This document shows positions 21,501 through 62,663 of a DNA stretch of 64,000 nucleotides, in pieces. A model generated the notes under the pieces. That model did not search any database. It saw nothing but the letters and a program-made list of their open reading frames with translations, and had not been told where the DNA came from. Origin of the DNA: a virus; UHGV virus genome UHGV-1383976; one strand, written 5' to 3'. The translations under genes and the position numbers were made by a program. The stretch's first letter is position 1, and the number at the start of each line of letters is the position of its first letter.

Positions 21501-23579
21501 GGCCCACAATATACTAACCTTCAGCCGGGTGATAGAGTTTTCACAGCTCCACAAACTCGCAAGATTTTGAGTAATTCTGACCGCGGGGCAACCCCATCAT
21601 TTGCCGGTGGCGGTAGTATTCTTGACCTATATGATCGCTCTAGCTCTTACAATGGGAAAGACAATAAGGATTGGTTGAACGATGGCTCCAGTTCAGGCTC
21701 CAGCTCCAAATCCGATGATGGCGATAAATGGCGCAACGAATTTGACTGGCTCTACAATCTAATGGAAGACCTCATCGAACTTGGCCGCGACCAAGAGAAG
21801 CTCGATGAGAAATATGAAGATTATCTTGCCGACATTTCCAAAACAGCGGGCGATCTCGTTCGTGTAACAGCGGAGCAATATCGCAATCTTTACGCACAGC
21901 AAGTTCGTCAAGAACTTGCCTATGAGAAACGTCTCCAAGAGATGCGCGAATACCTCGCGGTAAATGCACAATATGCCGAGTATGGTACTTATAACTTTGA
22001 TGACCAGACGATTGAAATCGACTGGGATAAGATTGAAGCCATTCTTGACGAAGACTTGTATAATAACGTAAAGGATTACGTTGATGGTTTAGAGGAAGTT
22101 CAAGATCGCATTGACAAGGCAGACGATGAACTCCAAGATATTGAGAATGATATCCAAGACCTCCGTGAACGCTTTATCGAGGAATATATCAGTTTTGAAA
22201 AGCGCATTTTAGAAGCGTTGGTCGATGAACGTCAAAAGCAAATTGATGAACTCAGTGACATCAATGACAGCATCAAAGATACCAATTCCAATTTGTTTGA
22301 TGCAATTCAAAAGTCAATTGATAAACAACGACAAGACCGCGATAATCAAAAGACTGAAGATGAAATTGCCAAGAAAGAGCGTCGTTTGGCTTTTTTGAGA
22401 CAAGATACTTCTACTGATAATACTGTTGCTATCAAAGAGCTTGAAAAAGAGCTTAGCGAAATGAAACAGGATTATACAGATGAATTGCTTGACCAAAAAC
22501 TGAGTCTTCTCCAAGATCAAGCTGATTTTGCCGCTGAGCAACGTGAGCGTCAAATCAAACTAATGGAAAGTAATCTTGAGTTTGACCAAGAGACTGGCCA
22601 ACTTTGGGAACAGATTCACGACTTGTTGAATAGTTCCGTTGGTGAAGATGGTAAGCTTCTAAATGATAGTGCGCTTGTTGCTTTACTCCAAAAGAGTGAA
22701 AGTTGGGAGAGCTTGAGCGAAGTTCAGAAAAAGATGTGGCAAGATGACCTTATCAAAGACTTCAATGCCGCATATGCGTATGTGTTATCGCAAAATATTG
22801 ATGAAACAAAAATTAAGCAAGATGAAACTAACAAGCTACTTGAGGAGCTTGTCAATCATTTAGTACCAAGTCATTCACAGGCTGCCGATAAGAATTCGAG
22901 CGGTTCAAGCGGTGGCGGAGGTTCTGGTGGTGGCGGAAGCCAGAGTCCGAACGATAAGATTCCACCAGATGAGAAAAACTCTAACCATAATGGTAATTAT
23001 TCTTCTGACTCAAATAAATATAAGTATGATGCTTATTATGGAGGGCAAAAAATTCGAGGAAATTTTGAAACAGCTTCTGAGGCAAAACAATTTGCTGTGA
23101 ATTATCGCGCAGCTCGACTAAAAGCGCTTCAAAATACCTATAACAAGATGAAGAAAGAACAGCCTTTCAATAAGGTTGGCCTTCGACAACAGGAAAAAAT
23201 TCTTGCGGCTGAGAAAAATAAAGCTATTGAGGTAAAAAAGATCCTACAGGCAAATTCTATTTTACCCTACAAAACAGGCGGCCTTGCAACTCAAACTGGT
23301 CTTGCTTGGCTTGACGGCACTAAGTCTCATCCCGAACTTGTACTCAATGCACGCGATACTGAAAACTTTATCCAACTCAAAGATGTGTTGTCTGACCTGT
23401 TGCGCGGTGGCTCCACAACAAGCAACACAACCACATCCGGCGATAACTATTTTAGCATCACGGTTCAAGCAGAAATCGCAAACGACTACGATGTTGAGCG
23501 TCTTACTAAAAAAATCAAAGATGAAATTTACAAAGACGGTTCTTATCGTGGCGTAAATGTGATCAGAAAAATCAGATAA
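15507..23579 (+). CDS. Tail tape measure protein (2690 aa)
   Basis: Giant ORF after the tail tube/chaperone genes. Extensive coiled coil. Ser/Gly-rich segments (SSGSSGGGGSGGGGS). AAAGGAGG RBS. Confidence 0.8.
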   Translation: MPTNRTVSGTINLKALLDVSQIRKAAGDIESALSGISLPKNISNALNKNLEKMKSDMTRLDQILAGNITADSSKDALNTAQRILKAYSDIKVAVAQAANLSNAQLKKLFPESVAENIEKANRALEKYNSNLEKYNSGKRQKESDISYQKGRQADLQKALDAEKKKPTEDAVKQQIADAQKQYNEIQQKIQEWYSKKEGRDALPEGQKRKSSTYRQLVDDLAKAEQALEKYKTALNSVQSPEAINKLESDLNSVAGKIRTAEEALRKFESQNSAPSFETLRAELEKLGIDMSNLPQDVDGARHAIAKLTNDELSKIQSQISGVISATDKGSGAFDNYASGANRARDAVRQLTNQERELQQFQSRVEYFFGFNNSVQLLKNAVRDAIDTVKDLDKAMTETAVVTDFSVGDMWKQLPKYTDEANKLGATVKGAYETLTLFYQQGLNQNQAWNLGIETMKMARIAGLDYTNATNLMTSALRGFNMELNQVSSQRVNDVYSELAAITASDVKELGVAMSKTASLAHSANMEFETTAALLAQGVEATRESPETIGTSLKTVIARFTEVKELFTKDQLMGTDSEGQVININKIDTALQTVGIDLKKFLLGEEGLDDVLLQLSSRWNTLDLATQRYIATQAAGSRQQSRFLAMISNYSRTQELVEAAYNSTGASQKQFEKTLGSLEAKLNKLTNAWDTFTMGLANNAVIKAVVDTLTTILTVINKITGAFGDGAGAVLKFMTAISLIKAGGVAFGSGMSWITQAKGAIDKGQAIPHIKDVAGQYAQTQYGTGFGRAMGNAFIGPWQFIPLTIKKWKEKLDNSEYAKQYIEHLNPVLEQAWETGNAPEMQAYLGARRNAGIKQFVWRGGQWLSKKGFSDSGFTRGLFTNRLTRGTSMKVAQSIGKSLGLVGTEGMKVAQSLTGVVAGLSLLSTGILAFAAAIKIADLNLINAKEAQAAAEAQKSAQSQARQNQSSFKEQISTYRQLQSTLKETTKGTDAWNEALVAANENVLEMAKNWGDLGLTYSVDNETGALQLDKTSQKKVEDKLTSATNELAFKTAFTQAYANAVQGRDYERSRVTQSLSGADDLKAQNKAKASLNTANSLLDSGLSSIIDSFDGFGSAINNDLLDEKYLKGAGKEAAKYFWHTTGDMTEDLMSRFGLTREQVLSTYGNGEKLDVELAHNALGLDDVANQLAAEVEGMASKFTEAFEGMANPSESAQAFLDVLNGVENVDLSKLEGAGENMYDILTSLGYEYGTEAYDNAYTQFLNNFVEAVKTTATNEARARGVLGDKFDLLSSETQKQFGSMLSDSSKYFGRKGVNEFQDQLTALSNEGEVDADRLTQAYNSIDFSSPIRAMSQLRKMAQSTNKEIQALGQQGLKSLSDNTSALSLSSQFEYLYENILSSDENLEDLIDEFGKLDADDIYDLADSFSDLKTFLKESGVSAAALATTLNRINKNGLNPNLISGEFLTAMSKLNSFTNGIEGTIKELDSIDLGIDYGQMTDFVADLLDPWKEMMNNGEFGNAQASGIYDLFFGAGSWRKVTQQGEAMVKQEGQRLFDLLNNVVNTGDLSPIWETVLGTDTLSGKGFNAKWNDELGRIDWEITDATYQDIYDSLAGKGLSDTLIKLLIGDAANFSIDLAQIVDANGVEEALKYLIENTKGIIDQSLIDTIINQAADPVEAQRIADEYLAKNNRKTDTWTGQTLMSGIQAGHNQKDVSGEGEYVQGIAETAFVDSIKAPIDKYKEAALEYFQGTEEDLQAALKGATDKKDFLNYFVGMSEKDEADAGRKAIEAFYEAATSEVEIQRTTWNVDEMFQLTGQDADTLFAGLSEEIQKNADEAYRLVWQDQTIDIDPNILIEQYKGDLSSYVNDELDSIAATDYSETLSNAIAEGLAKFDGNLEITVDGKSITTQVTTAINGAVNKKTYTVKVYGDVELPKSLGDSTTTSNHKFSKIKKAPSSANGTYVPSYAGGTRRAKAGPALGGEEGAEIVWNKEKGYAYIIGAKGPQYTNLQPGDRVFTAPQTRKILSNSDRGATPSFAGGGSILDLYDRSSSYNGKDNKDWLNDGSSSGSSSKSDDGDKWRNEFDWLYNLMEDLIELGRDQEKLDEKYEDYLADISKTAGDLVRVTAEQYRNLYAQQVRQELAYEKRLQEMREYLAVNAQYAEYGTYNFDDQTIEIDWDKIEAILDEDLYNNVKDYVDGLEEVQDRIDKADDELQDIENDIQDLRERFIEEYISFEKRILEALVDERQKQIDELSDINDSIKDTNSNLFDAIQKSIDKQRQDRDNQKTEDEIAKKERRLAFLRQDTSTDNTVAIKELEKELSEMKQDYTDELLDQKLSLLQDQADFAAEQRERQIKLMESNLEFDQETGQLWEQIHDLLNSSVGEDGKLLNDSALVALLQKSESWESLSEVQKKMWQDDLIKDFNAAYAYVLSQNIDETKIKQDETNKLLEELVNHLVPSHSQAADKNSSGSSGGGGSGGGGSQSPNDKIPPDEKNSNHNGNYSSDSNKYKYDAYYGGQKIRGNFETASEAKQFAVNYRAARLKALQNTYNKMKKEQPFNKVGLRQQEKILAAEKNKAIEVKKILQANSILPYKTGGLATQTGLAWLDGTKSHPELVLNARDTENFIQLKDVLSDLLRGGSTTSNTTTSGDNYFSITVQAEIANDYDVERLTKKIKDEIYKDGSYRGVNVIRKIR

Positions 23580-36121: not shown

Positions 36122-36820
36122 ATGAACGAAGGACTTAGTGCTAGCGATATTCTCGCTTTGACACGTGATAACGATGATGGTATGAATAATGCTTGGAATA
36201 ACCCTTTTATTTATCTTGTTTGGTTGGCATTGTTAGGTGGCAATGGCGGACTTTTTGGCCGTCGTGATGACTGCGCAACGCAAGGCGCAATAACTCGTTC
36301 CGACCTGTTCGAAGGTTTCAACAACCAAGATGTAAATGGCCAACTTCGCGGTATTACTAATGGTATATGTGATGGCTTTTATGCTATCAATAGCGAGATG
36401 AAAGATGGCTTCTATGGCAACCAAGCCACAATCAAAGATGGCTTTTATTCCACTCAAGCAGCGCTTGCTGAAAACAGATTTGCTCAGCAGCAATGCTGCT
36501 GTGAGACGAACCGCAATATTGACAACGTTCGCTCCGAAGCCTATAAGAATACTTGTGAAATTACCACCGCAATTCATAATGAAGGTGAAGCAACTCGTGC
36601 TCTCATAACCGCAAATACAATGCAAGAACTCCGTGATAAGCTCGCTGATCGCGACAGAGATTTGCTTTATGCAAACTTCCAGAACTCTCAGCAGCTCCAG
36701 AACGCATATTTAGTCGATACTTTGCGTCCTGTTAGTAGACCTGCATATATTACCTGCAGTCCATATCAATCTGTTAACTCTTGTGGTACATCTAGCTGCG
36801 GCTGTGGCTATGGCATTTGA
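36122..36820 (+). CDS. Hypothetical membrane-anchored protein (232 aa): one N-terminal TM helix, DGFY-containing tandem repeats, Cys-rich C-terminus (SCGTSSCGCGYGI)
   Basis: TAGGAGG RBS; TM segment FIYLVWLALLGGNGGLFG; repeats KDGFYA/KDGFYG/KDGFYS. Confidence 0.5.
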   Translation: MNEGLSASDILALTRDNDDGMNNAWNNPFIYLVWLALLGGNGGLFGRRDDCATQGAITRSDLFEGFNNQDVNGQLRGITNGICDGFYAINSEMKDGFYGNQATIKDGFYSTQAALAENRFAQQQCCCETNRNIDNVRSEAYKNTCEITTAIHNEGEATRALITANTMQELRDKLADRDRDLLYANFQNSQQLQNAYLVDTLRPVSRPAYITCSPYQSVNSCGTSSCGCGYGI

Positions 36821-36864
36821 GCCAACTCACCGTGAGTACATATCCGTATCAGGGGTGAAACTAA

Positions 36865-37281
36865 ATGGTAGATAGTTATAATATTCAATCTCAAACTGTT
36901 GATGTAAATGGCTTACTTACATTTCCTATCAATTCCATATTGACAGGCTGTACCGTTAGCCATACAGCAGGTAGCACAACATTCTCACTCAATAAGCCCG
37001 GACTTTATTTTGTATCATTCAATGCTGTCGGTACAATTTCAGGTGCTACTGCTGGTGCGATAACCGTTCAACTCCAGAATAATGGCACAGCAGTTCCGGG
37101 TGCGCTTAGCTCAGACACATCCGCATCAACAACTGACGTTCGTAATCTTTCCTTCACAAAAGTAATTCGAGTCAATCCATCTTGCTGTGCGGTCAATAAT
37201 CAAGCTAATCTGACATTTGTAAATGCAGGGCTTGGCGCGATTTACACCAATGCTAACGTGGTAATTACCAAGCTAGCGTAA
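36865..37281 (+). CDS. Hypothetical protein (138 aa), Thr/Ser/Ala-rich beta protein loosely reminiscent of BclA-C-terminal/C1q-like jelly-roll domains
   Basis: ORF with GGGGTG upstream; low-complexity beta-rich sequence ending ...NANVVITKLA. Confidence 0.4.
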   Translation: MVDSYNIQSQTVDVNGLLTFPINSILTGCTVSHTAGSTTFSLNKPGLYFVSFNAVGTISGATAGAITVQLQNNGTAVPGALSSDTSASTTDVRNLSFTKVIRVNPSCCAVNNQANLTFVNAGLGAIYTNANVVITKLA

Positions 37282-37630: not shown

Positions 37631-38368
37631 CCAAGAAATCATTTTTCGGTTTGGCGCACACTGCCGGACAGCATAAGTCCCAATTCCTATCGCGTCAGCC
37701 TCATCTTCGCTAACGGAAACATCATACCATTGCTTTGCTAATAAACGCATAGAACTTTTTCGGTCACTCCTCGTGCGCCCTTTGACTCCGCACTCTTGGC
37801 GCCAAACCCCTGTATGGCATAAAGTGTAAGCAATTCCTAACTCAAAGCAACACTCAATCAAAATTCCCTGAAGCCACGCGAGTTGTTGAAATACATCAAC
37901 ACCCATCGTGCGCTTACCTTCACTTTCATTCTGAAGTTGAATGTTCTCTAAGGCCACTAAATCTGGCTGCCAATTATAAAGCATATTGACGAGCCAAACT
38001 TTTACAGCATTGCTGCGCGCAATTGTATCGGGCAATTGTGTTTGATAAGTTCCATATTTGATAAGCTCTTTGTCATCAAAAATTGAAAATCCGGTAATAT
38101 GTGTCGCTTGGTCGAGAGCGAGCACACGAAAAATATTTTTCTTTTTTGGAACAATTTTAGATGTTGCAGCCTCTGTTTTATATACATTAGCTTCACACGT
38201 CGGGCATATGCGTTTTGCACGAAGTTTTTTCCAAGGTGCAAATACGGCATGACCTTCGGGACATTCAAACCGCATTTCTGTTTCAAGATTGGTATATGTA
38301 TCGCTTACGACTTTCCAGCCGTCTTGCTCTAATTCTTCTCTAATTGAATCTAGCGAAATTTTTGCCAT
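37625..38368 (-). CDS. RuvC-family Holliday junction resolvase with N-terminal zinc finger (CPEGH...CPTCE)
   Basis: Motifs LALDQATHITGFSIFD, ALENIQLQ and EADAIGIG consistent with the RuvC-like catalytic D/E/D triad; start overlaps dUTPase stop. Confidence 0.6.
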   Translation of the reverse strand: MAKISLDSIREELEQDGWKVVSDTYTNLETEMRFECPEGHAVFAPWKKLRAKRICPTCEANVYKTEAATSKIVPKKKNIFRVLALDQATHITGFSIFDDKELIKYGTYQTQLPDTIARSNAVKVWLVNMLYNWQPDLVALENIQLQNESEGKRTMGVDVFQQLAWLQGILIECCFELGIAYTLCHTGVWRQECGVKGRTRSDRKSSMRLLAKQWYDVSVSEDEADAIGIGTYAVRQCAPNRKMISWE

Positions 38369-39312
38369 TAGAACTTTCCAGTAGAACCGAAACCGCCCTG
38401 ACGGTCTTCCGCTCCATAAAGAGTTATATCATTTACTTCTTGCCAGCTTATTTTAGGAATTTCGGCAAGAACTAACTGGGCGATTTTTTGACCTTTTGTT
38501 ATGTAGACAGGTGAACCATGGAGAATTGATGTGATGATAGGGTGATGAGTTTCATTATCAAAATCATACGCTATGTCTTTGATCGCTGGCTCATTATTTT
38601 CGAGGATTATGCCAATCTCATCATGGAATCCTTCATCAACTGTGCCTATTCCATTCGCAACACGCATATGGGTGCGAGCTGACAGACCAGACTTTGCGCG
38701 CACTTGTATTTCATAGCCTTTTGGTAAAGCCACTCTCAAGCCCGTTGGAATTATTTTGATTTCGCCGGGGTCAATCGTATAATCGTCGAGTGCAAATACG
38801 TCAAGGCCACTGTCAGTTGTATGAGCATATTCAGGAAGTTTTACTTCATCAGACAATCGCTGTATAGGCACACTTACAACACGACGTGCAATTCGCTCAT
38901 TTTCACCAAGCGCATTTGCAACTATACCAAGAATGGATTTGAAGAAATCTATTTTGATTTGAGAAACTTTGCCATCCAAATTGGTTTGGAGTCTTTCTGC
39001 AATGTCGGCCAGTTCATCTATCATATCTTCAGCCGCGACACCTTGAATTGAAAGGTTCTGCGCAATACCAAGCTGAATCTGTGGGTCTTTGAAAGATGTG
39101 TAGAAATTCTCTAGTACATCTGCAGCAATTACCATAAATTTCTCATCATCAAGACTCATCAGACTCGAAAACGCTTTGACGTATTCATCAGCTTCATCAT
39201 CGTCAATCAGATTTCCAAAGAAGAAAGAAAAGGCTTCGCGCAAGGTCTGTTCGACGTCTATTTCTTCAGGCATTTCAATCGGCTGGCCTGAAATATCTAC
39301 TATATCACTCAT
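38368..39312 (-). CDS. dut: dUTPase (C-terminal ~165 aa) fused to a ~150-aa acidic N-terminal domain of unknown function
   Basis: dUTPase motifs 1 (DSGLDVFA), 3 (GTVDEGFHDEIGIIL) and 5 (RQGGFGSTG) present, with a conserved basic-residue region around QVRAKSGLS; residues 1-150 have no recognisable motif. Confidence 0.85.
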   Translation of the reverse strand: MSDIVDISGQPIEMPEEIDVEQTLREAFSFFFGNLIDDDEADEYVKAFSSLMSLDDEKFMVIAADVLENFYTSFKDPQIQLGIAQNLSIQGVAAEDMIDELADIAERLQTNLDGKVSQIKIDFFKSILGIVANALGENERIARRVVSVPIQRLSDEVKLPEYAHTTDSGLDVFALDDYTIDPGEIKIIPTGLRVALPKGYEIQVRAKSGLSARTHMRVANGIGTVDEGFHDEIGIILENNEPAIKDIAYDFDNETHHPIITSILHGSPVYITKGQKIAQLVLAEIPKISWQEVNDITLYGAEDRQGGFGSTGKF

Positions 39313-39530
39313 TCAAGTCCCTCCCATATGGTGCTATATACCATTGTACAAGAAACAACTTCGCAACTGTCAATTATTTCGCCCTTAGACTTCTTATCTT
39401 TGTGAGTGTAGCCGCACTTGGCTATCTGATAACCTCTCTCGCGAGCTTCAGTGCGAAACTTTTCCATCAAATCCTTTGCTTCGTTTTCACTTTCGACTCT
39501 ATATTCCTTAGTTTCTTTGAGCAGTATCAT
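39309..39530 (-). CDS. Hypothetical protein (73 aa)
   Basis: AAAGGAG RBS; first gene downstream of the promoter at 39588-39616. Confidence 0.45.
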   Translation of the reverse strand: MILLKETKEYRVESENEAKDLMEKFRTEARERGYQIAKCGYTHKDKKSKGEIIDSCEVVSCTMVYSTIWEGLE

Positions 39531-39587
39531 TTTATTTCTCCTTTATCCAATACATATAGAAAGGACTTCCTTTCTTTTTATAATATA

Positions 39588-39616
39588 ATTATACCACAAA
39601 AAGATAAGGAAGTCAA
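39588..39616 (-). promoter_or_regulatory. sigma-70-like promoter (minus strand) TTGACT-17-TATAAT
   Basis: Minus-strand reading TTGACTTCCTTATCTTTTTGTGGTATAAT. Confidence 0.7.
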
Positions 39617-39621
39617 ATTTT

Positions 39622-40908
39622 TCAATCTTTATTTTTCAAAACCAGATTGAGAATTATACCAGCCATAAGAGCAAGTGCAGTAGCAGAAATTGAGAAATCA
39701 GTTCCACCAATAGCAAGGCCGCTTATACCGAGAGAAAGAACCGCCGAAACAATTATCAGATTCTTTTGTCCATTCAGATCAACTTGTTGAAGCATCTTTA
39801 TACCACTACAAGCAATAAAACCATAGAGAACAATAGCTGCACCAGCAAAAACACAAGCTGGGATTGAACTGATAAAAGCTTGAACCGGAACGAAAAACCC
39901 CATAAGTATTAGAATAAGAGCGGCTGTCCCACTAACCTTAGCTGAAGCTACTTTACTAAAGCCCACACACGCGACGCCCTCTCCATAAGAGCAAGCGCCA
40001 AGTCCACCAAGTAAACCACTAACAGCATTTGCAAGTCCTTCACCAGCGAAGATGCGGTTAAGGCCGGGCTTCTGATATAGGTCAATACCAATTATGCCGC
40101 CAAGAGCAGCATGGTCGCTAAGGGCCTCCATCATTGCACTTATTGTATAAGCAATAAACAAAAATATCAAAGGAATAAGCTGTGGCAATTCAATGAATTT
40201 GTACCAATTGACATGAGAGATAGCGAGGTCAGGCAAAGCAAAAAGTCTCATATTTTCAAAAATACTAAAATCTACAACAGGAAAAATATTTGTAATTGTA
40301 AGCGCAACCGCATAAGTATAACCAACTAAAGTGCCAAGCAGAAACGGGAGAATCTTTATAATTCCTTTTGCATAATGTGAAAACAGTGCAATTGCTATCA
40401 TTGTGATGATAGCTATACTAACACCCCACATATTAGTTTCGCCATTTATCTGAACATAAGTCAAGATAAAAGGCATAAGATTAATACCTATAACAACCGT
40501 GACCGCGCCGATCAATGATTTGGGGAAAATTTTATATATATTTTCAACGGGAACACGACTAAAGATAAGACCAAAAATTGTATAAACAACCCAAATTACA
40601 AAACAACCAATAATTGCACCTTCATAACCACAAGAAGCAAGTGCAATTAGGATAGGAGCGACGAAAGCACCAGAATTCGAGATGAACATCGGAGACTGGC
40701 CTTTTGTTATAAGAATATAGGCCAAAGTACCGCAACCCGCGCCGACAAGTGCACCAGATATGGCAACGCCGCAAATATTGGCAATAAGCACTGTTGCCAC
40801 AAAAACTGATAACATCATCTGAATGGCAAACAGAATCAGCTTGCCAAAAGGAATTCTATCTCCAAGTGAATAAATCATTCGTGAGTCGCCTCCCAGTCTT
40901 GAAGCCAT
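39622..40908 (-). CDS. Nucleobase:cation symporter (NCS2; xanthine/uracil permease family) membrane transporter (428 aa)
   Basis: ~12-14 TM segments; glycine-rich helices typical of UraA/PyrP-like permeases (ISGALVGAGCGTL, GLLGGLGACSYGEGVACVGFSKV). Confidence 0.65.
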   Translation of the reverse strand: MASRLGGDSRMIYSLGDRIPFGKLILFAIQMMLSVFVATVLIANICGVAISGALVGAGCGTLAYILITKGQSPMFISNSGAFVAPILIALASCGYEGAIIGCFVIWVVYTIFGLIFSRVPVENIYKIFPKSLIGAVTVVIGINLMPFILTYVQINGETNMWGVSIAIITMIAIALFSHYAKGIIKILPFLLGTLVGYTYAVALTITNIFPVVDFSIFENMRLFALPDLAISHVNWYKFIELPQLIPLIFLFIAYTISAMMEALSDHAALGGIIGIDLYQKPGLNRIFAGEGLANAVSGLLGGLGACSYGEGVACVGFSKVASAKVSGTAALILILMGFFVPVQAFISSIPACVFAGAAIVLYGFIACSGIKMLQQVDLNGQKNLIIVSAVLSLGISGLAIGGTDFSISATALALMAGIILNLVLKNKD

Positions 40909-41381
40909 TTTATTACGTCTTCAATATTATCCACTAAAACGCCACCTTGTTTAATAAGGCCAACAGTATAAAGGTTCTGATAACAAAACTGACTCTCACC
41001 AATATCAAGACGCATTATTTCGGCTTTGGCGTCATTGTATGTGCGACTTGCCATACGACTATCGGTACAAATACCGATAATCATTTTCTTGTCTCCGCGC
41101 GTGATCTTTTCGTGAAATTTGCCAATTTCTGCACTTGTTCCAGAAGGAATCACATCGCCATCAATGCAAGCAACAAGGACATCAGTTTCATCCAAGCGCG
41201 CATTATCTCCATCCGCAATCTGCCAAGAGCTTGCACATTTTGTTTTATCATTTATTTCTTTATTTTCCAGAGGATTATAGAGGTTGATTCCGGGAATAGC
41301 ATCACGAATTTGTGCGCTCCATTTCTCATTTCTCATTCTATCTCCTTCACAAAAGATTGGCCCCGCCAAATAAACATTCAT
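40875..41381 (-). CDS. Nucleoside 2-deoxyribosyltransferase (NDT) family protein
   Basis: YLAGPIF motif at N-terminus; D..D and catalytic-Glu-like GTSAEIG block. Start chosen at internal ATG 41381 (MNVYLAGP) with GGAGGA RBS. Overlaps permease start. Confidence 0.65.
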   Translation of the reverse strand: MNVYLAGPIFCEGDRMRNEKWSAQIRDAIPGINLYNPLENKEINDKTKCASSWQIADGDNARLDETDVLVACIDGDVIPSGTSAEIGKFHEKITRGDKKMIIGICTDSRMASRTYNDAKAEIMRLDIGESQFCYQNLYTVGLIKQGGVLVDNIEDVIKWLQDWEATHE

Positions 41382-41737
41382 TCGTCTATATCCTCCAAAT
41401 AAATTATTTTTTTCTCTAATTGCTTTGCCCATTCAATTTCACGTTTTGTGGATTCACCAATATAGCCATTCTTGTTTATTACAAAAATCATATCAGACAT
41501 TGAAATTTTAGCTAGATGCATACGGTCGAGCTGTTGTTTTTCTTTCTCTGTCATTGTATCACCGTAATGCCCATAAATCTCAGGACTTAGGACAATATAG
41601 CCTGCAATTGTAAATTCTTTGCGATATTGCTGAAACAAAGGAAGAAACTTAGTACTGCCACACAATGTAATAATGGGAAACTCATTTTGGTAGTTCCGCA
41701 CTAAAATTTTATTAGTTATTTGTTGTCCCACATTCAT
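41378..41737 (-). CDS. Second NDT-like / Rossmann-fold nucleoside-modifying protein (119 aa from ATG; track ORF starts at TTG 41779)
   Basis: LCGSTKF...YIGESTKREIEWA blocks resemble the NDT/DUF4406-type fold; start ambiguous (TTG 41779 or ATG 41737). Confidence 0.4.
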   Translation of the reverse strand: MNVGQQITNKILVRNYQNEFPIITLCGSTKFLPLFQQYRKEFTIAGYIVLSPEIYGHYGDTMTEKEKQQLDRMHLAKISMSDMIFVINKNGYIGESTKREIEWAKQLEKKIIYLEDIDE

Positions 41738-41966
41738 CCTCGATTCCCATTGCTGCACTAGCTGCTTTATAGCCCTCAATATAGCCCATTGTATGTTCTT
41801 TATTCAGCCTTTCTTGAATATTCTTATAAACTTGCGGGAATAAACTTGCTATCACAAACTCAAAAGAAAGTTCAAGCTCATCTGTGTTTCCATTATACGT
41901 TTTTTCTACTTGCTCAATTACTCGTTTTATGTGCGTGAATCGAACCTTATCTAAATTTTCGTCCAT
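41712..41966 (-). CDS. Hypothetical protein (84 aa)
   Basis: AAAGGAG RBS; overlaps FNT stop. Confidence 0.4.
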   Translation of the reverse strand: MDENLDKVRFTHIKRVIEQVEKTYNGNTDELELSFEFVIASLFPQVYKNIQERLNKEHTMGYIEGYKAASAAMGIEDECGTTNN

Positions 41967-42544
41967 AATGTCTCCTTTCCATAATGTAGGGTTAAAGCGC
42001 CAAATGAATTACCTAATGCAGCAACTAAAATTTTTCGGAAGGAAATTGGTATAGAGCCTGCCGCTGAATAAAACATATTGGCAATGCAGTGATCAAAACC
42101 ACAATAAACAAATAAAAACACAGGGAGCATTATAGCAAGAAGGGACTTTGTTCGTTTGAATCCTTCAACTGCGCAATAGACACATACTCCGCACAAGTAG
42201 GAGCTAAAGAGTAAATTGGCATATGGCATTTCTGCTTTTGAAGAAGCAACTGAGTCGGCCAAAAATGGATTTACCCACCACACCAATAAGCCCAATAGCG
42301 CAGCACCAGCAAAATTTGCAATAAGCATTATACTTAAATCAATAAGATCTGCGCTATCACCTACATAAGCAATACGGCCAGTATAAAGTGGAAGGCTAAG
42401 TTCTAAAATTGAAACAAGCCCAAAGCTAAATAACAGTGCACCCAATATCTTATTTTGGCTAATGAGGTTGGCATATCCGCCAACCCCAATTAGCATACCT
42501 GCAAAGAAAGCAGGAATTATATTATAATTATCTTTTTTTATCAT
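41951..42544 (-). CDS. Compact formate/nitrite transporter (FNT; FocA-like) family channel (197 aa)
   Basis: YCGFDHCIANMF closely matches the FocA TM5 signature (ASGFEHSIANMF) including the central His; TM6 LGNSFGAL resembles FNT GN(I/L)xGG; six TM segments, unusually short. Confidence 0.65.
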   Translation of the reverse strand: MIKKDNYNIIPAFFAGMLIGVGGYANLISQNKILGALLFSFGLVSILELSLPLYTGRIAYVGDSADLIDLSIMLIANFAGAALLGLLVWWVNPFLADSVASSKAEMPYANLLFSSYLCGVCVYCAVEGFKRTKSLLAIMLPVFLFVYCGFDHCIANMFYSAAGSIPISFRKILVAALGNSFGALTLHYGKETLWTKI

Positions 42545-42550
42545 ATTTAT

Positions 42551-42579
42551 ATTATATCAAAATTTTATTGAAAAATCAA
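42551..42579 (-). promoter_or_regulatory. sigma-70-like promoter (minus) TTGATT-17-TATAAT overlapping nrdG stop
   Basis: Minus-strand reading TTGATTTTTCAATAAAATTTTGATATAAT. Confidence 0.6.
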
Positions 42580-43085
42580 ATTTCGAGTTCGCAAATGTGC
42601 GCTTTTTCCAAAGTTTGGTGAACATCTATAAGGCGCTGATTACGAGAGCCACGGAATGGCAAAGTTAAATCACGCTGCTCAAGAATAAAAGGACCATCTA
42701 CCACAACATCGCAAAGTTGGAGTGTTGTTGAAATGCGGCGAGGGGGATTGAAATCCTCCCAGTCCAAGTGGTAGCCAGTATAGAGCCAAATGTCCTTATC
42801 AGGAAATTTTTCTTTGATTTCCCTTAACAACTTATAGATAGTATTGTTGTTTTGTGGCTCAAGTGGATGACCGCCAGAAAGAGTAATGCCTTTTACCCAA
42901 GGTTTAGACAGGGCGTCAAACAATTCTTCTTTTGCGGCATCATCAAAAGGCTTACCTGCACAAAAGTCCCAAGTTTCAGGATTATGACATTCTTTACAAT
43001 GGAGGGAACATCCGGATACCCAAAGGACGACACGTACACCAAAGCCATTTGCGATGTCGCATTTTGTTATTTTGATATAATTCAT
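42576..43085 (-). CDS. nrdG: Anaerobic ribonucleotide reductase activating protein NrdG (radical SAM)
   Basis: CDIANGFGVRVVLWVSGCSLHCKEC motif. Start at ATG 43085 (GGGAGA RBS) overlapping the nrdD stop by 1 nt (TAATG). The upstream in-frame extension is rejected. Confidence 0.85.
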   Translation of the reverse strand: MNYIKITKCDIANGFGVRVVLWVSGCSLHCKECHNPETWDFCAGKPFDDAAKEELFDALSKPWVKGITLSGGHPLEPQNNNTIYKLLREIKEKFPDKDIWLYTGYHLDWEDFNPPRRISTTLQLCDVVVDGPFILEQRDLTLPFRGSRNQRLIDVHQTLEKAHICELEI

Positions 43086-45241
43086 TATGATTCTCCCAAA
43101 TGTAAGACGCGCTCTTTTATTTCTTGGGTACGGCCAAAATTCCAAAAATTAGAGCCAATATAGCCGCAAGTACGACGTGCAACATTCAAGGTAGAATGGT
43201 CGCGATTACCACAATTTGGACAATACCATTCCATATTATCATCAATAAGAATTTCGCCATCAAAACCACACTTCTGACAGTAGTCACTTTTTGTGTTAAG
43301 TTCAGCATACATTATGTTATCGTAAATAAACCTATAAAGCTCCAAGACAGCAGGAATGTTGTTTTGTAAATTAGGAACCTCTACATAGCTTATTGCACCA
43401 CCCGGACTAAGTTTTTGAAACTCAGCCTCAAAAGCAAGTTTATCAAAGGCATTGATTTCTTCAAAAACAGGGACATGATAACTGTTTGTAATATAATTAC
43501 GATCATGCTCATCAAGTTTAATAAATATATCATTACCAAATCGCTGCTTCAAACAACGTGCAAACTTATATGTTGTACTCTCAATAGGAGCGCCATAAAG
43601 AGAATAATCAATTTTTTCGACAGCTTTCCATTCAGCACACTTCTCATTTAAACGTGCCATTACTTCAAGAGCAAAAGGTTTTCCATCAGTTTGTGTATGA
43701 CTATGTCCTGTCATATATTTTACGCACTCATAAAGACCAGCATACCCAAGTGAAATTGTTGAATAGCCATTATGAAGCAACTTATCAAGCCTCTCACCTT
43801 TTTCAAGGCGGGCGAGTGCGCCATTTTGCCAAAGAATAGGGGCAACATCACTAAGGGTTCCCTCAAGACGTTTATGCCTAAGCTGAAGTGCTTTGTGGCA
43901 CAGTTCAGTGCGCTCTTCAAATAACTGCCAAAACTTATCAATATTGCCGCCTGAGCTAAAAGCCAAATCTGGTAAACTGATTGTAACAACACCTTGGTTG
44001 AAACGACCGTAGTATTTTGGGTTATTATTTTCATCAATATAAGGAGTTAGAAAACTTCTACAACCCATACAAGGATAGCAACGCCCCTTACCGGTTTTAT
44101 CTTTTTTTAATTCCAGCATCATTTTTTCAGAAATAATATCGGGGACAAGGCGTTTTGCTGTACATTTTGCTGCGAGTTCTGTTAAATAAAAATATTTGTC
44201 GCCCGGCCGTAAATTATCAGGTTCAAGGACATAAAGTAACTTAGGAAATGCAGGTGTGATATAAACGCCTTTTTCATTCTTGAAGCCTAAAATACGTTGC
44301 TTAATAAACTCCTCTATCAACATTGCCAATTCATTCTTATATTCTTCTGTTTCATTTAAATACATAAACACAGAAAGAAATGGTGCTTGGCCATTTGTTG
44401 TTGTCATTGAATTGACTTGATAATTGAAAGTCTGAACAGCATCAACGACTTCTTTTTTTGTATCAAGTTGCGCATACTTGCACGCACTTTCATCATCAAA
44501 GCCCCAATCCTTATACTTTTTAAGATAAGCCTCATAAGAACTTCTAACAAAAGGAGCAAGGTGCGTAAGAGTAATAGTGGCACCGCCATACGAAGAAGAA
44601 GCAACACCAAGAATTACTTGCGTTGCAATCGTAGAAGCTGTTAAAATTCTGTGTGGCTTCTCAATTTTAACATTGTTGATTACAGTTCCATTTTGAAGAA
44701 CATCTTCCAAGTTGATAAGATCGCAATTATGGAGCGTTTTCTGACCAAAATAATCAATATCGTGGAAGTGTATAATGCCTTTCTCGTGAGCATCTACAAT
44801 TTCTGGAGGAAGAAGAAATCGTTTAGAGATATCTTCACTAACAATACCTGCCATGTAATCGCGCTGTGTTGTTACAAGATCAGCGTTTTTGTTTGAATTT
44901 TCCGCGTTCCAATAATCACTTGTGCCGCTAATTAGTTCAAGTAAATCTTTGTCTGTTGTATTACCTTCGCGCGCAAGCCTATGTTTATACCTATATTCAA
45001 CATAGCGCTCAGCTACGTCTTTTCTTGAACTAGCCATAAGCCGCTCAACTACTAAGTCTTGAATTTCTTCAACACTCAAATCTCTATTAAGTTTTTCTAT
45101 TTGAGTGGCCACCATTCGTGCCTTGTTTTTGGCATAAGATGTTTCACGTCCATCTACTTCCAAAAAGGCTTTGAGAATGGCAACTCTAATTTTCTCTTTA
45201 TCAAATGGAACCGTAGTTCCATCACGTTTTATGACGTACAA
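43085..45241 (-). CDS. nrdD: Anaerobic ribonucleoside-triphosphate reductase NrdD (class III RNR)
   Basis: N-terminal ATP-cone (VIKRDGTTVPFDKEKI). C-terminal Zn ribbon CxxC..CxxC and glycyl-radical motif RRTCGYIG. TTG start at 45241 supported by GGAGG 7 nt upstream. Confidence 0.9.
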   Translation of the reverse strand: MYVIKRDGTTVPFDKEKIRVAILKAFLEVDGRETSYAKNKARMVATQIEKLNRDLSVEEIQDLVVERLMASSRKDVAERYVEYRYKHRLAREGNTTDKDLLELISGTSDYWNAENSNKNADLVTTQRDYMAGIVSEDISKRFLLPPEIVDAHEKGIIHFHDIDYFGQKTLHNCDLINLEDVLQNGTVINNVKIEKPHRILTASTIATQVILGVASSSYGGATITLTHLAPFVRSSYEAYLKKYKDWGFDDESACKYAQLDTKKEVVDAVQTFNYQVNSMTTTNGQAPFLSVFMYLNETEEYKNELAMLIEEFIKQRILGFKNEKGVYITPAFPKLLYVLEPDNLRPGDKYFYLTELAAKCTAKRLVPDIISEKMMLELKKDKTGKGRCYPCMGCRSFLTPYIDENNNPKYYGRFNQGVVTISLPDLAFSSGGNIDKFWQLFEERTELCHKALQLRHKRLEGTLSDVAPILWQNGALARLEKGERLDKLLHNGYSTISLGYAGLYECVKYMTGHSHTQTDGKPFALEVMARLNEKCAEWKAVEKIDYSLYGAPIESTTYKFARCLKQRFGNDIFIKLDEHDRNYITNSYHVPVFEEINAFDKLAFEAEFQKLSPGGAISYVEVPNLQNNIPAVLELYRFIYDNIMYAELNTKSDYCQKCGFDGEILIDDNMEWYCPNCGNRDHSTLNVARRTCGYIGSNFWNFGRTQEIKERVLHLGES

Positions 45242-50634: not shown

Positions 50635-51729
50635 TTAAAAGCTCCACTCCGCGTTTTCGACTTCAACATCTACGATTTGCAATTGGGGGGTGTAATTTCC
50701 TAACCATTCATTAACATTGGGTTTACCCACAATTGTTAAACACATTTCAGGCCATTTATGAAGCTTTTCAATCAAGTCTTTTGCACGGAACTTTATGTAG
50801 GTAATTCCATTTTTTTCAATTCGTATTGTATCTTGATTCTTGCCGATTATTTTTACATCATCGGGTTTTATATAGAGGTTTGTTATCGCTATAAGACTCT
50901 GAGGATTATTTTGACCCCAAACTCTTTCGTAGCGTGCCAAATCAAAAATAATGTTGCTTATATCACTATCACTTGCCTTGCGAACGAAATCGACGTCATA
51001 GTTATTATTACCAAAGTCATAAGATGCCAATTGGGTATTAGAAAGATTCAGTAGTTCATTGCGGCTGTTGGCTGGAATAGCAAACCCAGCAGCGTTAGCG
51101 TGCCCTTGCACATAGTCAAACAATGACGTATCTAACAAATAGTCTTTGAACGACGTGAGCGCACTCTGCGAAAGTCCTCTAATACTTCCCTTTATCATTC
51201 CATCTGAGCCTTCGCGTCCTATCATTGTTGGCTTATGGTATCGCGCGCTAAGTTGCGTGGCAATTAGACCATTCAGCTCAGGAGGAAAGTCATCATCGTC
51301 ATCAAGTTTAACAAACAAAATTTTATTTTCTAGCAAATCATACTTGTGTATCTTATACTCAAGTTGCTCGGTTGCTTTTTCTTTTGCCTTATCTTGATGC
51401 GACTTTGCATTTGTACATTCGCGCGTGCTTTCAATTGCGAGCTTTTCAAGTGTTCCTTTTGCCCCGCGCTTGCCACTTGGCACAAGTGTTTCACCCATAA
51501 CAACTGCACGATAAAGGCGCTCTTTTTCCTCTTGAGAACCTACACGAATCATTGCATTTATCAATGGTGTTATGTAAAATGCAACAGTTGTCGGATTGAT
51601 CTCACCGCCCATTGAGTAGGACTGTTTTTCAACAAGAGTTTTGAGAAAAAAGTTTTGTATGTTAGAACAACCACGCTGAACAATAAATTGATTTTCATAA
51701 GACAACATACTCATCATATCGCTTATGCT
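50635..51729 (-). CDS. Exon 2 of split DHH-family (RecJ-like) phosphoesterase: linker + DHHA1 domain
   Basis: DHHA1 signature GHANAAGFAIP. N-terminal SDMMSMLSYENQFIVQRG aligns with the RecJ ADVVPLDGENRILVKQG continuation after motif IV. An in-frame stop at 51730-51732 lies upstream. Confidence 0.6.
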   Translation of the reverse strand, partial: SISDMMSMLSYENQFIVQRGCSNIQNFFLKTLVEKQSYSMGGEINPTTVAFYITPLINAMIRVGSQEEKERLYRAVVMGETLVPSGKRGAKGTLEKLAIESTRECTNAKSHQDKAKEKATEQLEYKIHKYDLLENKILFVKLDDDDDFPPELNGLIATQLSARYHKPTMIGREGSDGMIKGSIRGLSQSALTSFKDYLLDTSLFDYVQGHANAAGFAIPANSRNELLNLSNTQLASYDFGNNNYDVDFVRKASDSDISNIIFDLARYERVWGQNNPQSLIAITNLYIKPDDVKIIGKNQDTIRIEKNGITYIKFRAKDLIEKLHKWPEMCLTIVGKPNVNEWLGNYTPQLQIVDVEVENAEWSF

Positions 51730-52717
51730 TTAGCCTATATGTTTCCATATAGAATAGACTATCTTTTGCTATAAAAATATAGTGTGTCTCTTTCGATTTT
51801 CAAAGGTTTCATTTCTTAACACCTTGCTACGTATCAATAGTAGCTCTACTCCCCAGCATTTCAACCTAAGGGATAGTCGTTACAGGCTTATTTTACGTGC
51901 TTCCATGTTATATTATCGCAGACTCGTGAAATAGTAATATAAGAAACAAAAGAATATTGTTGACTAATTTGAGTTTTTGTTTTTCCTTGAGAATAAAGAT
52001 TTCGAATATTACGGACGTCCTGCTCCGTCAGTTTGGCTTTGACATTATTTTCTCCTCTATTTGCGATTGATGAATACTCTTGACGAGTTTTCTTTTCTGC
52101 AAATAATTCTTGTCCAATTTCAGGGTATGTTGTTCCCAACCAAACTTTTTCAAATACAGAGAACTTTCTGTCAGAAAAGTCTCTATATACTTCGCATTTT
52201 CTTTCCCCGTTTTTCTTCCTTTTTCTAATCCATAAAATTTCTTCATCAGAAAAAGAACGTCTAGTTTTTCTTTTTTCTTGCCCGCCTTCGGTTAAATTAT
52301 ATCCAAAATCTTTTTCATTCGCTCGGAAATATTTTATCCAGTATTTTTCTTTTTCATCTAATTCTTCGGGCAAACATTCTTCAAGGATAACAATTCTTTC
52401 TACTCGACCAAAATATTTTTTTATAGCTAAATCACAAGCCTGTTTATTTGAGCTGGGAGTATTATGCTCCCACATCCGTCTTTTTATATTAATACTTTGT
52501 CCAATATAACATTTATTATTTGGAAAATCAATCTTGTAAATACCACAAATATTTTGCTCTAAATCAGAAATTATAACTTGTTTCATAGTCCTCCTTTTTG
52601 GAGGCACGTAAAAAATTCCCACGGGATTACCATGCTTTTCAGTTTAGGTTTCCCCGTTAGCATATATTTCTATATACCCTTACTGATAAGTAAGAAAAGA
52701 CACATTCGCACCATTCA
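51730..52717 (-). mobile_element. Group I intron (td-like architecture) with GIY-YIG homing endonuclease ORF in a peripheral loop; boundaries approximate
   Basis: Separates the DHH and DHHA1 halves of one gene. 5' part has an acggggaa...aaucccgug pairing like T4 td P4-P5. 3' part has acgacuaucccuuagg (P7-like, G-binding GACUA). HEG is preceded by its own AAGGAGG RBS. Confidence 0.6.
51888..52586 (-). CDS. GIY-YIG homing endonuclease (intron-encoded)
   Basis: GIYKIDFPNNKCYIGQS...R..EH motif. Start at internal ATG (MKQVIIS) with AAGGAGG RBS; track ORF extends to a GTG at 52622. Coordinates +/-1. Confidence 0.8.
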   Translation of the reverse strand: MKQVIISDLEQNICGIYKIDFPNNKCYIGQSINIKRRMWEHNTPSSNKQACDLAIKKYFGRVERIVILEECLPEELDEKEKYWIKYFRANEKDFGYNLTEGGQEKRKTRRSFSDEEILWIRKRKKNGERKCEVYRDFSDRKFSVFEKVWLGTTYPEIGQELFAEKKTRQEYSSIANRGENNVKAKLTEQDVRNIRNLYSQGKTKTQISQQYSFVSYITISRVCDNITWKHVK

Positions 52718-53344
52718 GTCGATGCCTAATGCAGCTAAATCTGTATAATTCCAAGCCCAATCGTGTCCAAATGCATCATCAAGTGCTCTACAAAACTGCC
52801 ATACAACACCAGCACCACATAGGTCTTTATTCTTGTAGGCGAAGCTTGTCTGATTATTTATAAGAATCATATTGGACGGGATTTCACTTATAGGTTCTAA
52901 TTCGTGATGGTCAAGAACCAATACGGGGCAATCTAATTGTTTAATATACTCGCCATCATTAGTCCCGGCATCTGGAATTAGAACACCGCTCCAACTATGT
53001 TCAAGTAATTGTTCCATCACATCACTACAACCGTGCTGCTTACCACTATGTATTATCTGTATAATATGTTTTACAGGATTGAGTCGCTTTATATATTGAT
53101 AAATAATGCCACTTGATGTCAAGCCATCAGCGTCGCAATCACAAATAATAGCCAGTGGTTTTTCATCATCAATGTTTTGCTTGATAAATTCAATACCCTT
53201 ATCCACATTGTCAAGTGCCCGCCAGCTTTGCAGGCAGGTTTCGTCAGGATTCAAGAACAGCTCAACATTTTCAATCCCTCTAAGCCGTAAAATTTGTTCT
53301 CCATAATTATCATATATTCCATCATTTGTCAATTTATATTTCAC
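52715..53344 (-). CDS. Exon 1 of split DHH-family (RecJ-like) phosphoesterase: DHH domain
   Basis: Motif I ICDCDADG, DHH motif LVLDHHE, motif IV-like CGAGVVWQF; GTG start; ORF terminates at a stop a few codons into the intron. Confidence 0.7.
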   Translation of the reverse strand: MKYKLTNDGIYDNYGEQILRLRGIENVELFLNPDETCLQSWRALDNVDKGIEFIKQNIDDEKPLAIICDCDADGLTSSGIIYQYIKRLNPVKHIIQIIHSGKQHGCSDVMEQLLEHSWSGVLIPDAGTNDGEYIKQLDCPVLVLDHHELEPISEIPSNMILINNQTSFAYKNKDLCGAGVVWQFCRALDDAFGHDWAWNYTDLAALGID

Positions 53345-62292: not shown

Positions 62293-62293
62293 T

Positions 62294-62515
62294 TTATTCA
62301 ACCTCTACTAAAATTATCATATTATTATTTTCATTATTGAAACTAACATTTCTGACGATTTTATTATAATAAGGCTCTAATTTGTCTAAGGTTCTTCCAA
62401 TTTTAGGACTATTATCCATAATAATACGCCAACAATATTCTTTTCCCTCAATTGAGGTAAAGAAATATATGCCATCTAAATTACAGAGAGAAGTAAATTG
62501 CTCTAAATTAATCAT
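62294..62515 (-). CDS. Hypothetical protein (73 aa)
   Basis: ATG ORF overlapping the endonuclease start by 8 nt. Confidence 0.3.
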   Translation of the reverse strand: MINLEQFTSLCNLDGIYFFTSIEGKEYCWRIIMDNSPKIGRTLDKLEPYYNKIVRNVSFNNENNNMIILVEVE

Positions 62516-62663
62516 GTATCTAGACTATCCTTTTCTTTATTTTCCTCAATTAACTTTTTAAAATATTTATACCAATAGCAGGACTTATCTGGTAGACAAG
62601 TCCTGCACATAGCAGTTTTGCAATTACAGAATTCAAACAAAGGGCATTTATTCCATTTATTAG

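Follow-up and report, generated by a model that had tools for sequence, protein, structure and literature searches.

A permease and a variant nucleoside deoxyribosyltransferase encoded as a recurrent gene pair in uncultured phages: a candidate cassette for supplying DNA precursors

The DNA precursors of phages are usually regarded as products of the infected cell itself, made by ribonucleotide reductase (RNR) and deoxynucleoside monophosphate (dNMP) kinases or recycled from host DNA. A stretch of 64,000 nucleotides from the UHGV virus genome UHGV-1383976 (hereafter the window) raises the question of why a phage would encode a membrane transporter for nucleobases directly after a nucleoside 2-deoxyribosyltransferase (NDT). 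An earlier note, made from the letters of this DNA, had joined four genes into a module for deoxynucleoside salvage or base swapping: a permease of the NCS2 family, the NDT, a second, smaller NDT-like protein and a dUTPase with an N-terminal extension. Phage NDTs, permeases of the NCS2 family and islands with class III RNR are each known already. The conserved unit that we find is narrower than the proposed module and consists of the NDT and the permease. We read this pair as a two-gene salvage or rebalancing cassette, in which a base importer and a deoxyribosyltransferase would feed the deoxynucleoside triphosphates (dNTPs) of the phage. This reading, to which we assign a probability of roughly 0.55, is built on gene linkage and residue patterns.

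The linkage was examined in IMG/VR regions fetched around relatives of the NDT and the permease. The first set of 94 loci, which includes duplicate contigs, contains 75 distinct NDT/permease pairs, all 75 of them co-oriented and with a median gap of 15 bp; the NDT precedes the permease in 67 pairs and the order is reversed in 8. The pooled loci hold 98 distinct NDT sequences, 39-98% identical to that of the window, and a co-oriented NCS2 permease is present within 2 kb of the NDT for 94 of these variants. Of the four without a nearby permease, three lie no more than 420 bp from a contig end, and one locus (L142), with GyrB directly after the NDT, is genuinely unpaired. Divergent subclades with the motif SGD[IM]PPIGT (NDT 39-44% identical) likewise carry the permease. 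Where the two genes are separated, the inserts include homing endonucleases, of the GIY-YIG type at one locus, and small open reading frames (ORFs) without assigned function. When neighbours were clustered, the next commonest families (PhoH, NrdD, RNase H, ligase, T4-type dNMP kinase and ClpP) were each found in at most 27 of 72 loci. The core idea of the earlier note, a base importer joined to a deoxyribosyl-transfer enzyme, is therefore supported by a near-obligate linkage over 98 distinct variants. The four-gene module is conserved only as far as this pair: the first 94 loci, duplicates included, gave 27 ORF matches to the small NDT-fold gene and 13 to the long-form dUTPase, and both are facultative neighbours of the pair, as are NrdDG and a channel of the formate/nitrite transporter (FNT) family.

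The genes are also joined at the level of translation. The longest ORFs (permease 39622-40908, NDT 40875-41432, small NDT-like protein 41378-41779) begin upstream of the true starts: alignment with homologues, together with gene calls made independently on ENA/Logan contigs, gives products of 418, 168 and 119 amino acids, respectively, with the NDT starting at its second Met. With the starts so corrected, the NDT is linked by an ATGA stop/start overlap to the small NDT-fold gene on one side and to the permease on the other, and a GGAGG-like site precedes each junction; the permease is translationally coupled to the NDT. It could nevertheless be argued that the two genes are mere neighbours in a nucleotide-metabolism island and that the permease is a generic auxiliary gene. 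The island does hold unrelated nucleotide genes, the NDT of L142 has no permease, and other phage records (Clostridium phage c-st and fecal 'Bacteriophage sp.' contigs) carry an NCS2 permease without an NDT. However, the linkage is kept when the gene order is reversed and when homing endonucleases are inserted, the stop and start codons overlap, and the other neighbours vary. An absence of coupling is thus already disfavoured, and we judge it very improbable.

Signature peptides of the NDT clade were found in only three contigs among 185,579 species genomes, in a scan whose clade-specific patterns leave Asp-type NDTs of cells outside its reach; all three contigs come from metagenome-assembled genomes (MAGs) and all three carry the pair. 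A 151-kb contig in a 'Methanobrevibacter' MAG from goat ileum (L097, JAFRFD010000012.1) carries the pair and may be a mis-binned phage contig. Protein searches of INPHARED returned no record with the NDT-permease pair. The NDT matches there were confined to Bacillus, Geobacillus, Lactococcus and Enterococcus records. The permease matches, which include the Clostridium and fecal records named above, appear from record lengths and annotations to derive mostly from unannotated multi-contig records or host flanks. Phage-borne nucleobase transporters, described as rare in the earlier note, are thus rare among deposited genomes but not among uncultured phages of the gut and rumen. Our literature searches found no published description of a conserved, coupled NDT-permease operon, and because the same pair recurs in about 100 uncultured phages, it probably represents a previously undescribed way for phages to feed DNA synthesis.

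The NDT scores 45.5 bits against PF05014 (nucleoside 2-deoxyribosyltransferase, EC 2.4.2.6; gathering score 28.8), matches PHROG 1817 at 1.8e-26, and contains the YLAGPIF motif and the catalytic Glu block (SAEIG) that had been noticed at the outset. Its best match among solved structures is 7M5H (E 7.6e-24 with the single sequence, 9e-48 with a profile), the EfPDT of Enterococcus faecalis V583, to which it is about 40% identical over the whole domain. EfPDT is a tetrameric, purine-specific type I enzyme with catalytic Tyr5, Asp60, Asp80, Glu86, Asn130* and Tyr132* (PMC12372993). In the ORF numbering used here, E102, Y21 and D76 correspond to the nucleophile Glu86 and its partners Tyr5 and Asp60, and N153 corresponds to Asn130, which comes from the neighbouring subunit; Tyr132 is shared as well. 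Y21, D76, E102, N153, Y155 and P54 are invariant in 65 of 65 sequences of the lineage. The phage protein and EfPDT also have in common an NLY rather than NLM motif and the PxEN..IN.K and TDSR blocks. When the profile of the clade was run against the PDB, it matched transferases only, with no DNPH1 or MilB chain up to E = 10.

One active-site position sets the lineage apart. The Asp that binds the 5'-OH of the sugar (EfPDT Asp80, CtNDT Asp82), which we take to be equivalent to LlNDT Asp92, is replaced by P96 in all 65 sequences. Asp82 and Asn118 of CtNDT adjoin the sugar 5'-OH (PMC10913048), and the canonical Asp is present in EfPDT, DpNDT, BpNDT, CtNDT and the NDTs of Bacillus phage Thrax1 and Lactococcus phage phiL47. 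The lineage further differs from EfPDT in an invariant Asp93, in Gly-Thr replacing Gly-Val, in a basic five-residue insertion after the catalytic helix (KFHEKIxRG) and in being phage-restricted and paired with a permease; the loop after P96 reads Pro-Ser/Ala-Gly-Thr, with Ser or Ala at -5 from the Glu. A HMMER scan of 1.84 billion cluster representatives yielded 282 relatives of the NDT. Among 150 representatives at 50% identity clustering, most, the more distant ones, have Asp at -6 from the Glu, and the GD-x-x-P form is limited to one sub-lineage, which is restricted to phage contigs. Several of its long members carry a fused GIY-YIG homing endonuclease, a hallmark of phages; informative fusions were looked for in these long representatives, and only the homing endonucleases were present. 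No published description of a Pro-for-Asp NDT lineage was found in literature searches.

The permease is a clear relative of the NCS2 proteins, whose characterised members import their substrates by coupling to protons. It matches Pfam Xan_ur_permease (PF00860) at E 1.4e-54 and aligns over its full length with the UraA structures (PDB 3QE7 and 5XLS, E ~1e-41). Its E261 in transmembrane helix 8 and E310 in transmembrane helix 10 are the equivalents of UraA Glu241 and Glu290, which places it in the COG2233 group of NCS2/NAT. The signature E261/D265/E310/G80 is invariant in 69 phage permease homologues (35-98% identity). UraA His245 is replaced by Asp and Phe73 by Gly in all 69, and the position of Asn291 is Gly or Ser; the permease of the window falls outside the UraA/PyrP uracil-permease equivalog. 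The Asp at the His245 position presumably matches that of xanthine/uric-acid transporters such as XanQ and UapA. The binding site is therefore an invariant hybrid, with Glu and Asp in helix 8 and Glu in helix 10, that fits no characterised specificity. The best NCBIfam model is uracil permease (2.4e-60) and TIGR00801 matches at 3.8e-57, but all NCBIfam equivalog cut-offs were missed (204.6 bits against 477 for uracil permease). Because Glu241 and Glu290 are kept, His245 and Phe73 are changed and the equivalog cut-offs are missed, the permease is best viewed as a distinct phage-borne branch of the COG2233 subfamily, which comprises uracil/thymine, xanthine/urate and purine (YbbY) transporters as well as clusters of unknown function (PMC6308229).

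What the loss of the 5'-OH-binding Asp means for the donor substrate can be considered in the light of two relatives. DNPH1 holds a 5'-phosphate through residues (Ser98 and Ser128' in the human enzyme) at the positions of the NDT 5'-OH ligands (PMC10603095). DmtZ, an NDT-family enzyme of PurZ0 Z-genome phages reported in 2026, has neither of the two ligands (Asp and Asn) but retains the transferase Pro; it both hydrolyses dAMP and moves deoxyribose 5-phosphate onto 2-aminoadenine (PMC12884076). Judged by sequence, the change from Asp to Pro goes toward such dNMP-using relatives, and the phage lineage would be a halfway case in which the Asp is lost and the Asn retained. Either Asp93 took over 5'-OH binding, which would make the protein an ordinary nucleoside-level NDT, or the Pro-Ser/Ala-Gly-Thr loop admits a phosphate, which would make it a dNMP-level enzyme. 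Because the 5'-OH-binding Asp of every characterised NDT is an invariant Pro here, it is possible, although we hold this tentatively, that a dNMP serves as donor instead of a deoxynucleoside. Weak support comes from the frequent presence of a T4-gp1-type dNMP kinase (PF21448) near the cassette in relatives, where the flanking DNA retrieved for 68 of about 166 loci contains it, a count that includes duplicates (e.g. L063:4862-5470). A more specific proposal, and a doubtful one, is that the NDT is a phosphodeoxyribosyltransferase with its own importer, which would swap the bases of host-derived dNMPs and produce, for example, dAMP or dTMP from adenine or thymine.

The resemblance to DmtZ, assessed here from the published description of that enzyme, also bears on the more speculative suggestion of the earlier note that a non-canonical base is involved. 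Under this explanation the cassette would load an unusual base, imported or made by the phage, on deoxyribose 5-phosphate in the manner of DmtZ, and the phage DNA would be modified. Both proteins are phage members of the NDT family that have the transferase Pro, a non-charged residue at the 5'-OH site and a dUTPase-family gene nearby, as is seen in Z phages. DmtZ demonstrates that such enzymes are capable of this chemistry (PMC12884076), dZ genomes have been connected with a type I NDT of phage origin (bioRxiv 10.1101/2025.10.22.683976), and the hybrid permease site, which fits no characterised specificity, also counts in favour of this explanation. Yet DmtZ has lost both Asp and Asn, has a DNPH1-like structure and has no linked permease, whereas the phage NDT retains Asn153 and resembles EfPDT. 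The window offers no direct support for a modified base: it is without PurZ, DatZ, DpoZ or other modification genes, its polymerase is of the DnaE type, and its dUTPase has the ordinary dut signature above the equivalog cut-off. Reliance on a rare base supplied by the environment would moreover be fragile. The altered 5'-OH site and the DmtZ precedent leave some room for this explanation, but we consider it quite unlikely.

The salvage reading can be put as a sequence of steps. Early in infection the permease would enter the host membrane and import a free nucleobase from the gut lumen. The NDT would form a covalent deoxyribosyl-Glu102 intermediate from a donor released by host DNA breakdown, and would hand the deoxyribose, or deoxyribose 5-phosphate, to the imported base. 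Surplus deoxynucleosides or deoxynucleotides would thereby be converted to those that the phage needs, and the products would add to the dNTPs that the adjacent NrdDG provides, while the dUTPase would clear dUTP. Of this scheme we infer which way the transport runs, which base is carried and what serves as donor.

Several points weigh against the salvage reading. Whether the enzyme is a transferase or a hydrolase is not readable from sequence. Asp93, three residues upstream of Pro96, might supply the missing 5'-OH contact and leave an ordinary nucleoside-level NDT, and Asn153, the second 5'-OH ligand, is kept, unlike in DmtZ and DNPH1. Deoxyribosyl exchange yields no net deoxyribose, so the benefit could only be a rebalancing of pools. 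The nearest enzyme is purine-specific and the nearest permease structure is that of a uracil transporter; hence the substrates of the two partners are not obviously matched. There is no deoxynucleoside kinase or dNMP kinase in the window. Finally, the unpaired locus L142 counts against the pairing, and the linkage statistics come from related phages, whose variants are not fully independent events.

Independent analogues lend support to the logic of uptake joined to sugar transfer. In upp-uraA and pyrP-type operons a base:proton symporter of the same family is encoded beside the transferase by which the imported base is attached to a sugar; there the donor is phosphoribosyl pyrophosphate and the product a ribonucleotide, whereas the transferase of the phage cassette is of the deoxyribosyl type. 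Lactococcus phages of the 949/phiL47 group resemble the window in that an NDT directly precedes a membrane transporter, with a class III RNR (NrdDG) in the same row, but the transporter belongs to the unrelated PnuC/PnuN family and the NDT has the canonical Asp. The PnuN branch of the PnuC family is predicted to carry deoxynucleosides (PMC7749635). Borrelia burgdorferi employs the deoxyribosyltransferase BB0426 and the purine permeases BBB22-23 in salvage (PMC2764106). Like the phage, it is a parasite with limited dNTP synthesis that combines uptake of bases or nucleosides with deoxyribosyl exchange; unlike the phage, it is cellular, its genes are not operon-linked and it lacks RNR.

Ahead of the pair in this phage lies the small NDT-fold gene. 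The family assignments of the earlier note held on profile search for the permease, the NDT and the dUTPase, and the small protein could be placed by a sub-threshold match to DUF4406 (PF14359; 19.3 bits against a gathering score of 22, with homologues at 14-20 bits) together with structure prediction. Its AlphaFold2 (AF2) model has a predicted local distance difference test (pLDDT) score of 84.7, and a Foldseek search against the PDB returned NDT, DNPH1 and MilB folds at E 4e-4 and template-modelling scores of 0.6-0.67, with CtNDT, DpNDT, DNPH1, BcmB and MilB as the top matches. Because the predicted fold is that of the NDT superfamily but the DUF4406 score is sub-threshold, the protein is placed in a sister family of DUF4406. 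This family is large and unnamed, with 1028 homologues, a core of about 100 residues and the invariant motifs LCGSTxF, LDxxHxxKI and YIGxSTxxEI. Some homologues (P0124, P0125, P0127, P0129, P0143 and P0159) have an N-terminal Cys-rich domain of about 65 residues (GYCCC...C.C..F......GFCHCG.YYK), for which Pfam gave no match up to E 0.1; on visual inspection its Cys pattern is reminiscent of catalytic subunits of ferredoxin:thioredoxin reductase, and a redox connection with RNR would then be conceivable.

Of the catalytic residues, the small protein retains Asp and Glu, whereas Thr occupies the Tyr position; Gly is found six residues before the Glu (-6), and there is no conserved transferase Pro. 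One possibility is that the protein is a nucleotide N-glycosidase. It is conceivable that the NDT variant, the small protein or both hydrolyse certain (deoxy)nucleoside monophosphates, with the permease taking up the base again or expelling it. The superfamily includes the hydrolases DNPH1, MilB and BcmB, the small-protein model fits these as well as it fits transferases, and the NDT has lost its 5'-OH Asp. Against this, a hydrolase linked to a permease whose characterised relatives import has no obvious logic, and in the PDB the NDT profile found only transferases. The relationship and 5'-phosphate-site Ser expected of DNPH1, MilB or BcmB are absent from the NDT, which has Pro at -6 and Asn at the neighbour-subunit position. 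The earlier note had looked to an alignment of catalytic residues to separate transferase from N-glycosidase; the NDT keeps the transferase residues, including P54, and departs from them at the 5'-OH Asp. The transferase Pro is conserved in transferases and excludes water from the active site (PMC12884076). Hydrolysis as the function of the cassette is unlikely in our view.

A role in counter-defence has also to be considered. The cassette might rebuild pools depleted by dCTP deaminase, dGTPase or ATP nucleosidases, or might degrade a nucleotide signal. Phages are established to restore depleted metabolites, and the TIR and SLOG folds of immune signalling are related to NDTs; weak TIR and ThsB matches occur far down the Foldseek list of the small protein. 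However, the neighbours are replication and dNTP-synthesis genes and the NDT is strongly similar to a bona fide deoxyribosyltransferase. No PADLOC model matched any of the eight proteins of the row that were tested, and assignment to a known defence or anti-defence system was dropped on that account. We regard counter-defence as highly unlikely.

The dUTPase stands somewhat apart from the cassette. It is assigned to the trimeric dUTPases by the NCBIfam dut equivalog NF001862 (111.3 bits against 103) and TIGR00576 (106.1 against 102.55), and carries the C-terminal GFGSTG motif and the catalytic Asp of motif III. Its PDB matches include dUTPase entries, which we take to be those of staphylococcal phages, that align continuously over residues 147-312, and an insertion between motifs III and IV presumably resembles theirs. 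Since the dUTPase domain spans residues ~145-314, the N-terminal extension, proposed earlier at about 150 residues, is real and about 145 residues long. It is lineage-specific, being conserved in DnaE-bearing relatives down to 30% identity, and only two close homologues were found in a word-indexed search. The AF2 model of the extension is all-helical, with six helices and a pLDDT of 67; it had no fold match (E >= 0.3) and no Pfam or PDB sequence match. DmtZ-DutZ fusions of Z-genome phages carry an NDT-like domain on a dUTPase-family protein (PMC12884076). A third NDT-like domain of this kind, as in Wayne-type phages, was considered for the extension and rejected with modest confidence, the domain being all-helical and without fold or sequence match. 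The cultured Bacillus phage Thrax1 (L095, 9485-10300) also has an NDT beside RNR genes and a 271-residue dUTP diphosphatase, whose extra sequence shows no similarity to the N-terminal domain of the window dUTPase.

Whether the dUTPase shares a transcript with the cassette is a separate question, and the single early transcription unit assumed in the earlier note is not established. A near-consensus sigma-70-like promoter candidate (TTGACT and TATAAT separated by 17 nt, with a TG extension) is the best site in the region, although promoter-like sites there total no more than expected from shuffled sequence. It sits in the 91-bp gap downstream of the permease, before an ORF of 73 codons. Its position suggests that transcription is divided here, with the cassette on one side and the 73-residue ORF, dUTPase and RuvC-like resolvase on the other, and for the same reason the dUTPase may be transcribed separately, which again speaks against a four-gene unit. 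A 7-bp inverted repeat at 39558-39575 adjoins the candidate. The 73-residue ORF has tblastn and blastp matches of 34-97% identity in 16 related loci and is called as a gene in ENA/Logan contigs, as is, in related contigs, the 84-residue ORF that precedes the small NDT-fold gene, with matches confined to close relatives. Neither had a Pfam, PHROG or PADLOC match.

The features of the locus are listed in Table 1. The window is a fragment of a tailed-phage genome, with terminase, portal and tail protein on the plus strand and, on the minus strand from ~37.6 kb onward, a module for replication and nucleotide metabolism. This module includes a DnaE-type polymerase, a DnaB-type helicase, primase, RecJ, GyrA/B and a Sak4-like annealing protein. 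Read 5' to 3', its row around the cassette runs NrdD, NrdG, FNT-family channel, 84-residue ORF, small NDT-fold gene, NDT, NCS2 permease, 73-residue ORF, extended dUTPase and RuvC-like resolvase. Proteins of the window are 96-98% identical to those of IMG/VR contigs of 75-132 kb, while a megablast of 9 kb of the window against INPHARED gave zero DNA-level matches to deposited phage genomes. The exact 119-residue NDT-fold protein is encoded on at least 24 metagenome contigs, at least one record being labelled gut metagenome, and is indexed in 95 blocks of the contig collection. No tRNA genes were found in the window.

Table 1. Features of the cassette and its surroundings in the window, in order of transcription.
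Feature	Coordinates	Strand	Basis
Class III ribonucleotide reductase NrdD, context gene	43085-45241	-	PHROG NrdD
NrdG activase, context gene	42576-43085	-	TIGR02491
Formate/nitrite-transporter-family (FNT) channel, 197 aa, context gene	41951..42544	-	Pfam Form_Nir_trans
84-aa ORF between FNT channel and small NDT-fold gene	41712..41966	-	Called in related contigs
Small NDT-superfamily-fold protein, 119 aa	41378..41737	-	Sub-threshold DUF4406; AF2 and Foldseek
Variant nucleoside 2-deoxyribosyltransferase (NDT), EfPDT-like lineage, 168 aa	40875..41381	-	PF05014; 7M5H match
NCS2/NAT (COG2233-type) nucleobase:cation symporter, 418 aa	39622..40878	-	Xan_ur_permease; UraA structures
Sigma-70-like promoter candidate	39588..39616	-	11/12 consensus positions
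Conserved 73-aa ORF between permease and dUTPase	39309..39530	-	Homologues and gene calls
Trimeric-type dUTPase (residues ~145-314) with helical N-terminal domain	38368..39312	-	NCBIfam dut equivalog

The RNR genes upstream of the cassette are well defined: NrdG scores 175 bits against TIGR02491 (cut-off 126), and NrdD matches its PHROG at 1.6e-199 and has ATP-cone, NRDD and Gly_radical domains in gene calls. Directly after them lies the FNT channel (PF01226, Form_Nir_trans; 1.5e-22, 80.6 bits against 34.6), which does not reach the NCBIfam cut-offs for fnt, FocA or NirC and was found only in close relatives of the window. Its translation holds 'LYTG' with a loop Thr and 'FDHCIAN' with a central His, which we take to be FocA-type motifs in a channel shorter than FocA. 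Class III RNR classically takes its reducing power from formate, and since the channel adjoins NrdDG it may import reductant for the phage's own reductase. No literature on phage FNT channels was found.

In larger rumen and gut phages (150-190 kb), a dNMP kinase, PhoH, ClpP, RNase H, ATP-dependent ligase and metallophosphoesterase recur near the cassette; none of this set is present in the window. Core genes of the window are broken by homing endonucleases in two regions, 50635-53344 (-) and 61375-63620 (-). A GIY-YIG gene at 51888-52622 parts the DHH portion of RecJ from its C-terminal portion, and an HNH gene at 61375-62301 lies between a C-terminal fragment of GyrB and GyrA. Relatives (L172, L175) show breaks of this kind as well, with a LAGLIDADG gene inside the dUTPase and an HNH gene that divides NrdD. 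On the plus strand, a terminase-like ORF at 2903-6094 encodes 1063 residues, of which only 555-1043 match terminase; the structural module at 15507-23579 holds a single ORF of 2690 residues; and the end of the plus-strand module (36122-37281) encodes a Cys-rich protein of 232 residues and a protein of 138 residues that resembles the BclA C-terminal domain.

If the salvage reading is correct, a conserved operon of importer and NDT would mean that many phages of the gut and rumen draw on extracellular bases in addition to intracellular sources, and the productivity of these phages would then depend on the nutrient status of the gut. A phage-specific NDT lineage, recognisable by its invariant lack of the Asp that binds the 5'-OH, may act on nucleotides, which is of relevance to nucleoside and nucleotide biocatalysis; the phosphodeoxyribosyltransferases engineered for that field were reportedly designed by hand. 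Should the NDT prove to be a phosphodeoxyribosyltransferase, the cassette would provide a kinase-free and possibly folate-free route for retuning dNMP pools to the AT-rich composition of the phage. It would then do for canonical bases what DmtZ does for 2-aminoadenine, and would represent a new class of auxiliary metabolism in phages, one dependent on nutrients of the lumen. In either case the pair consists of two small genes that lend themselves to simple assays, and thus offers both an experimental handle and a genomic marker for a group of uncultured phages.

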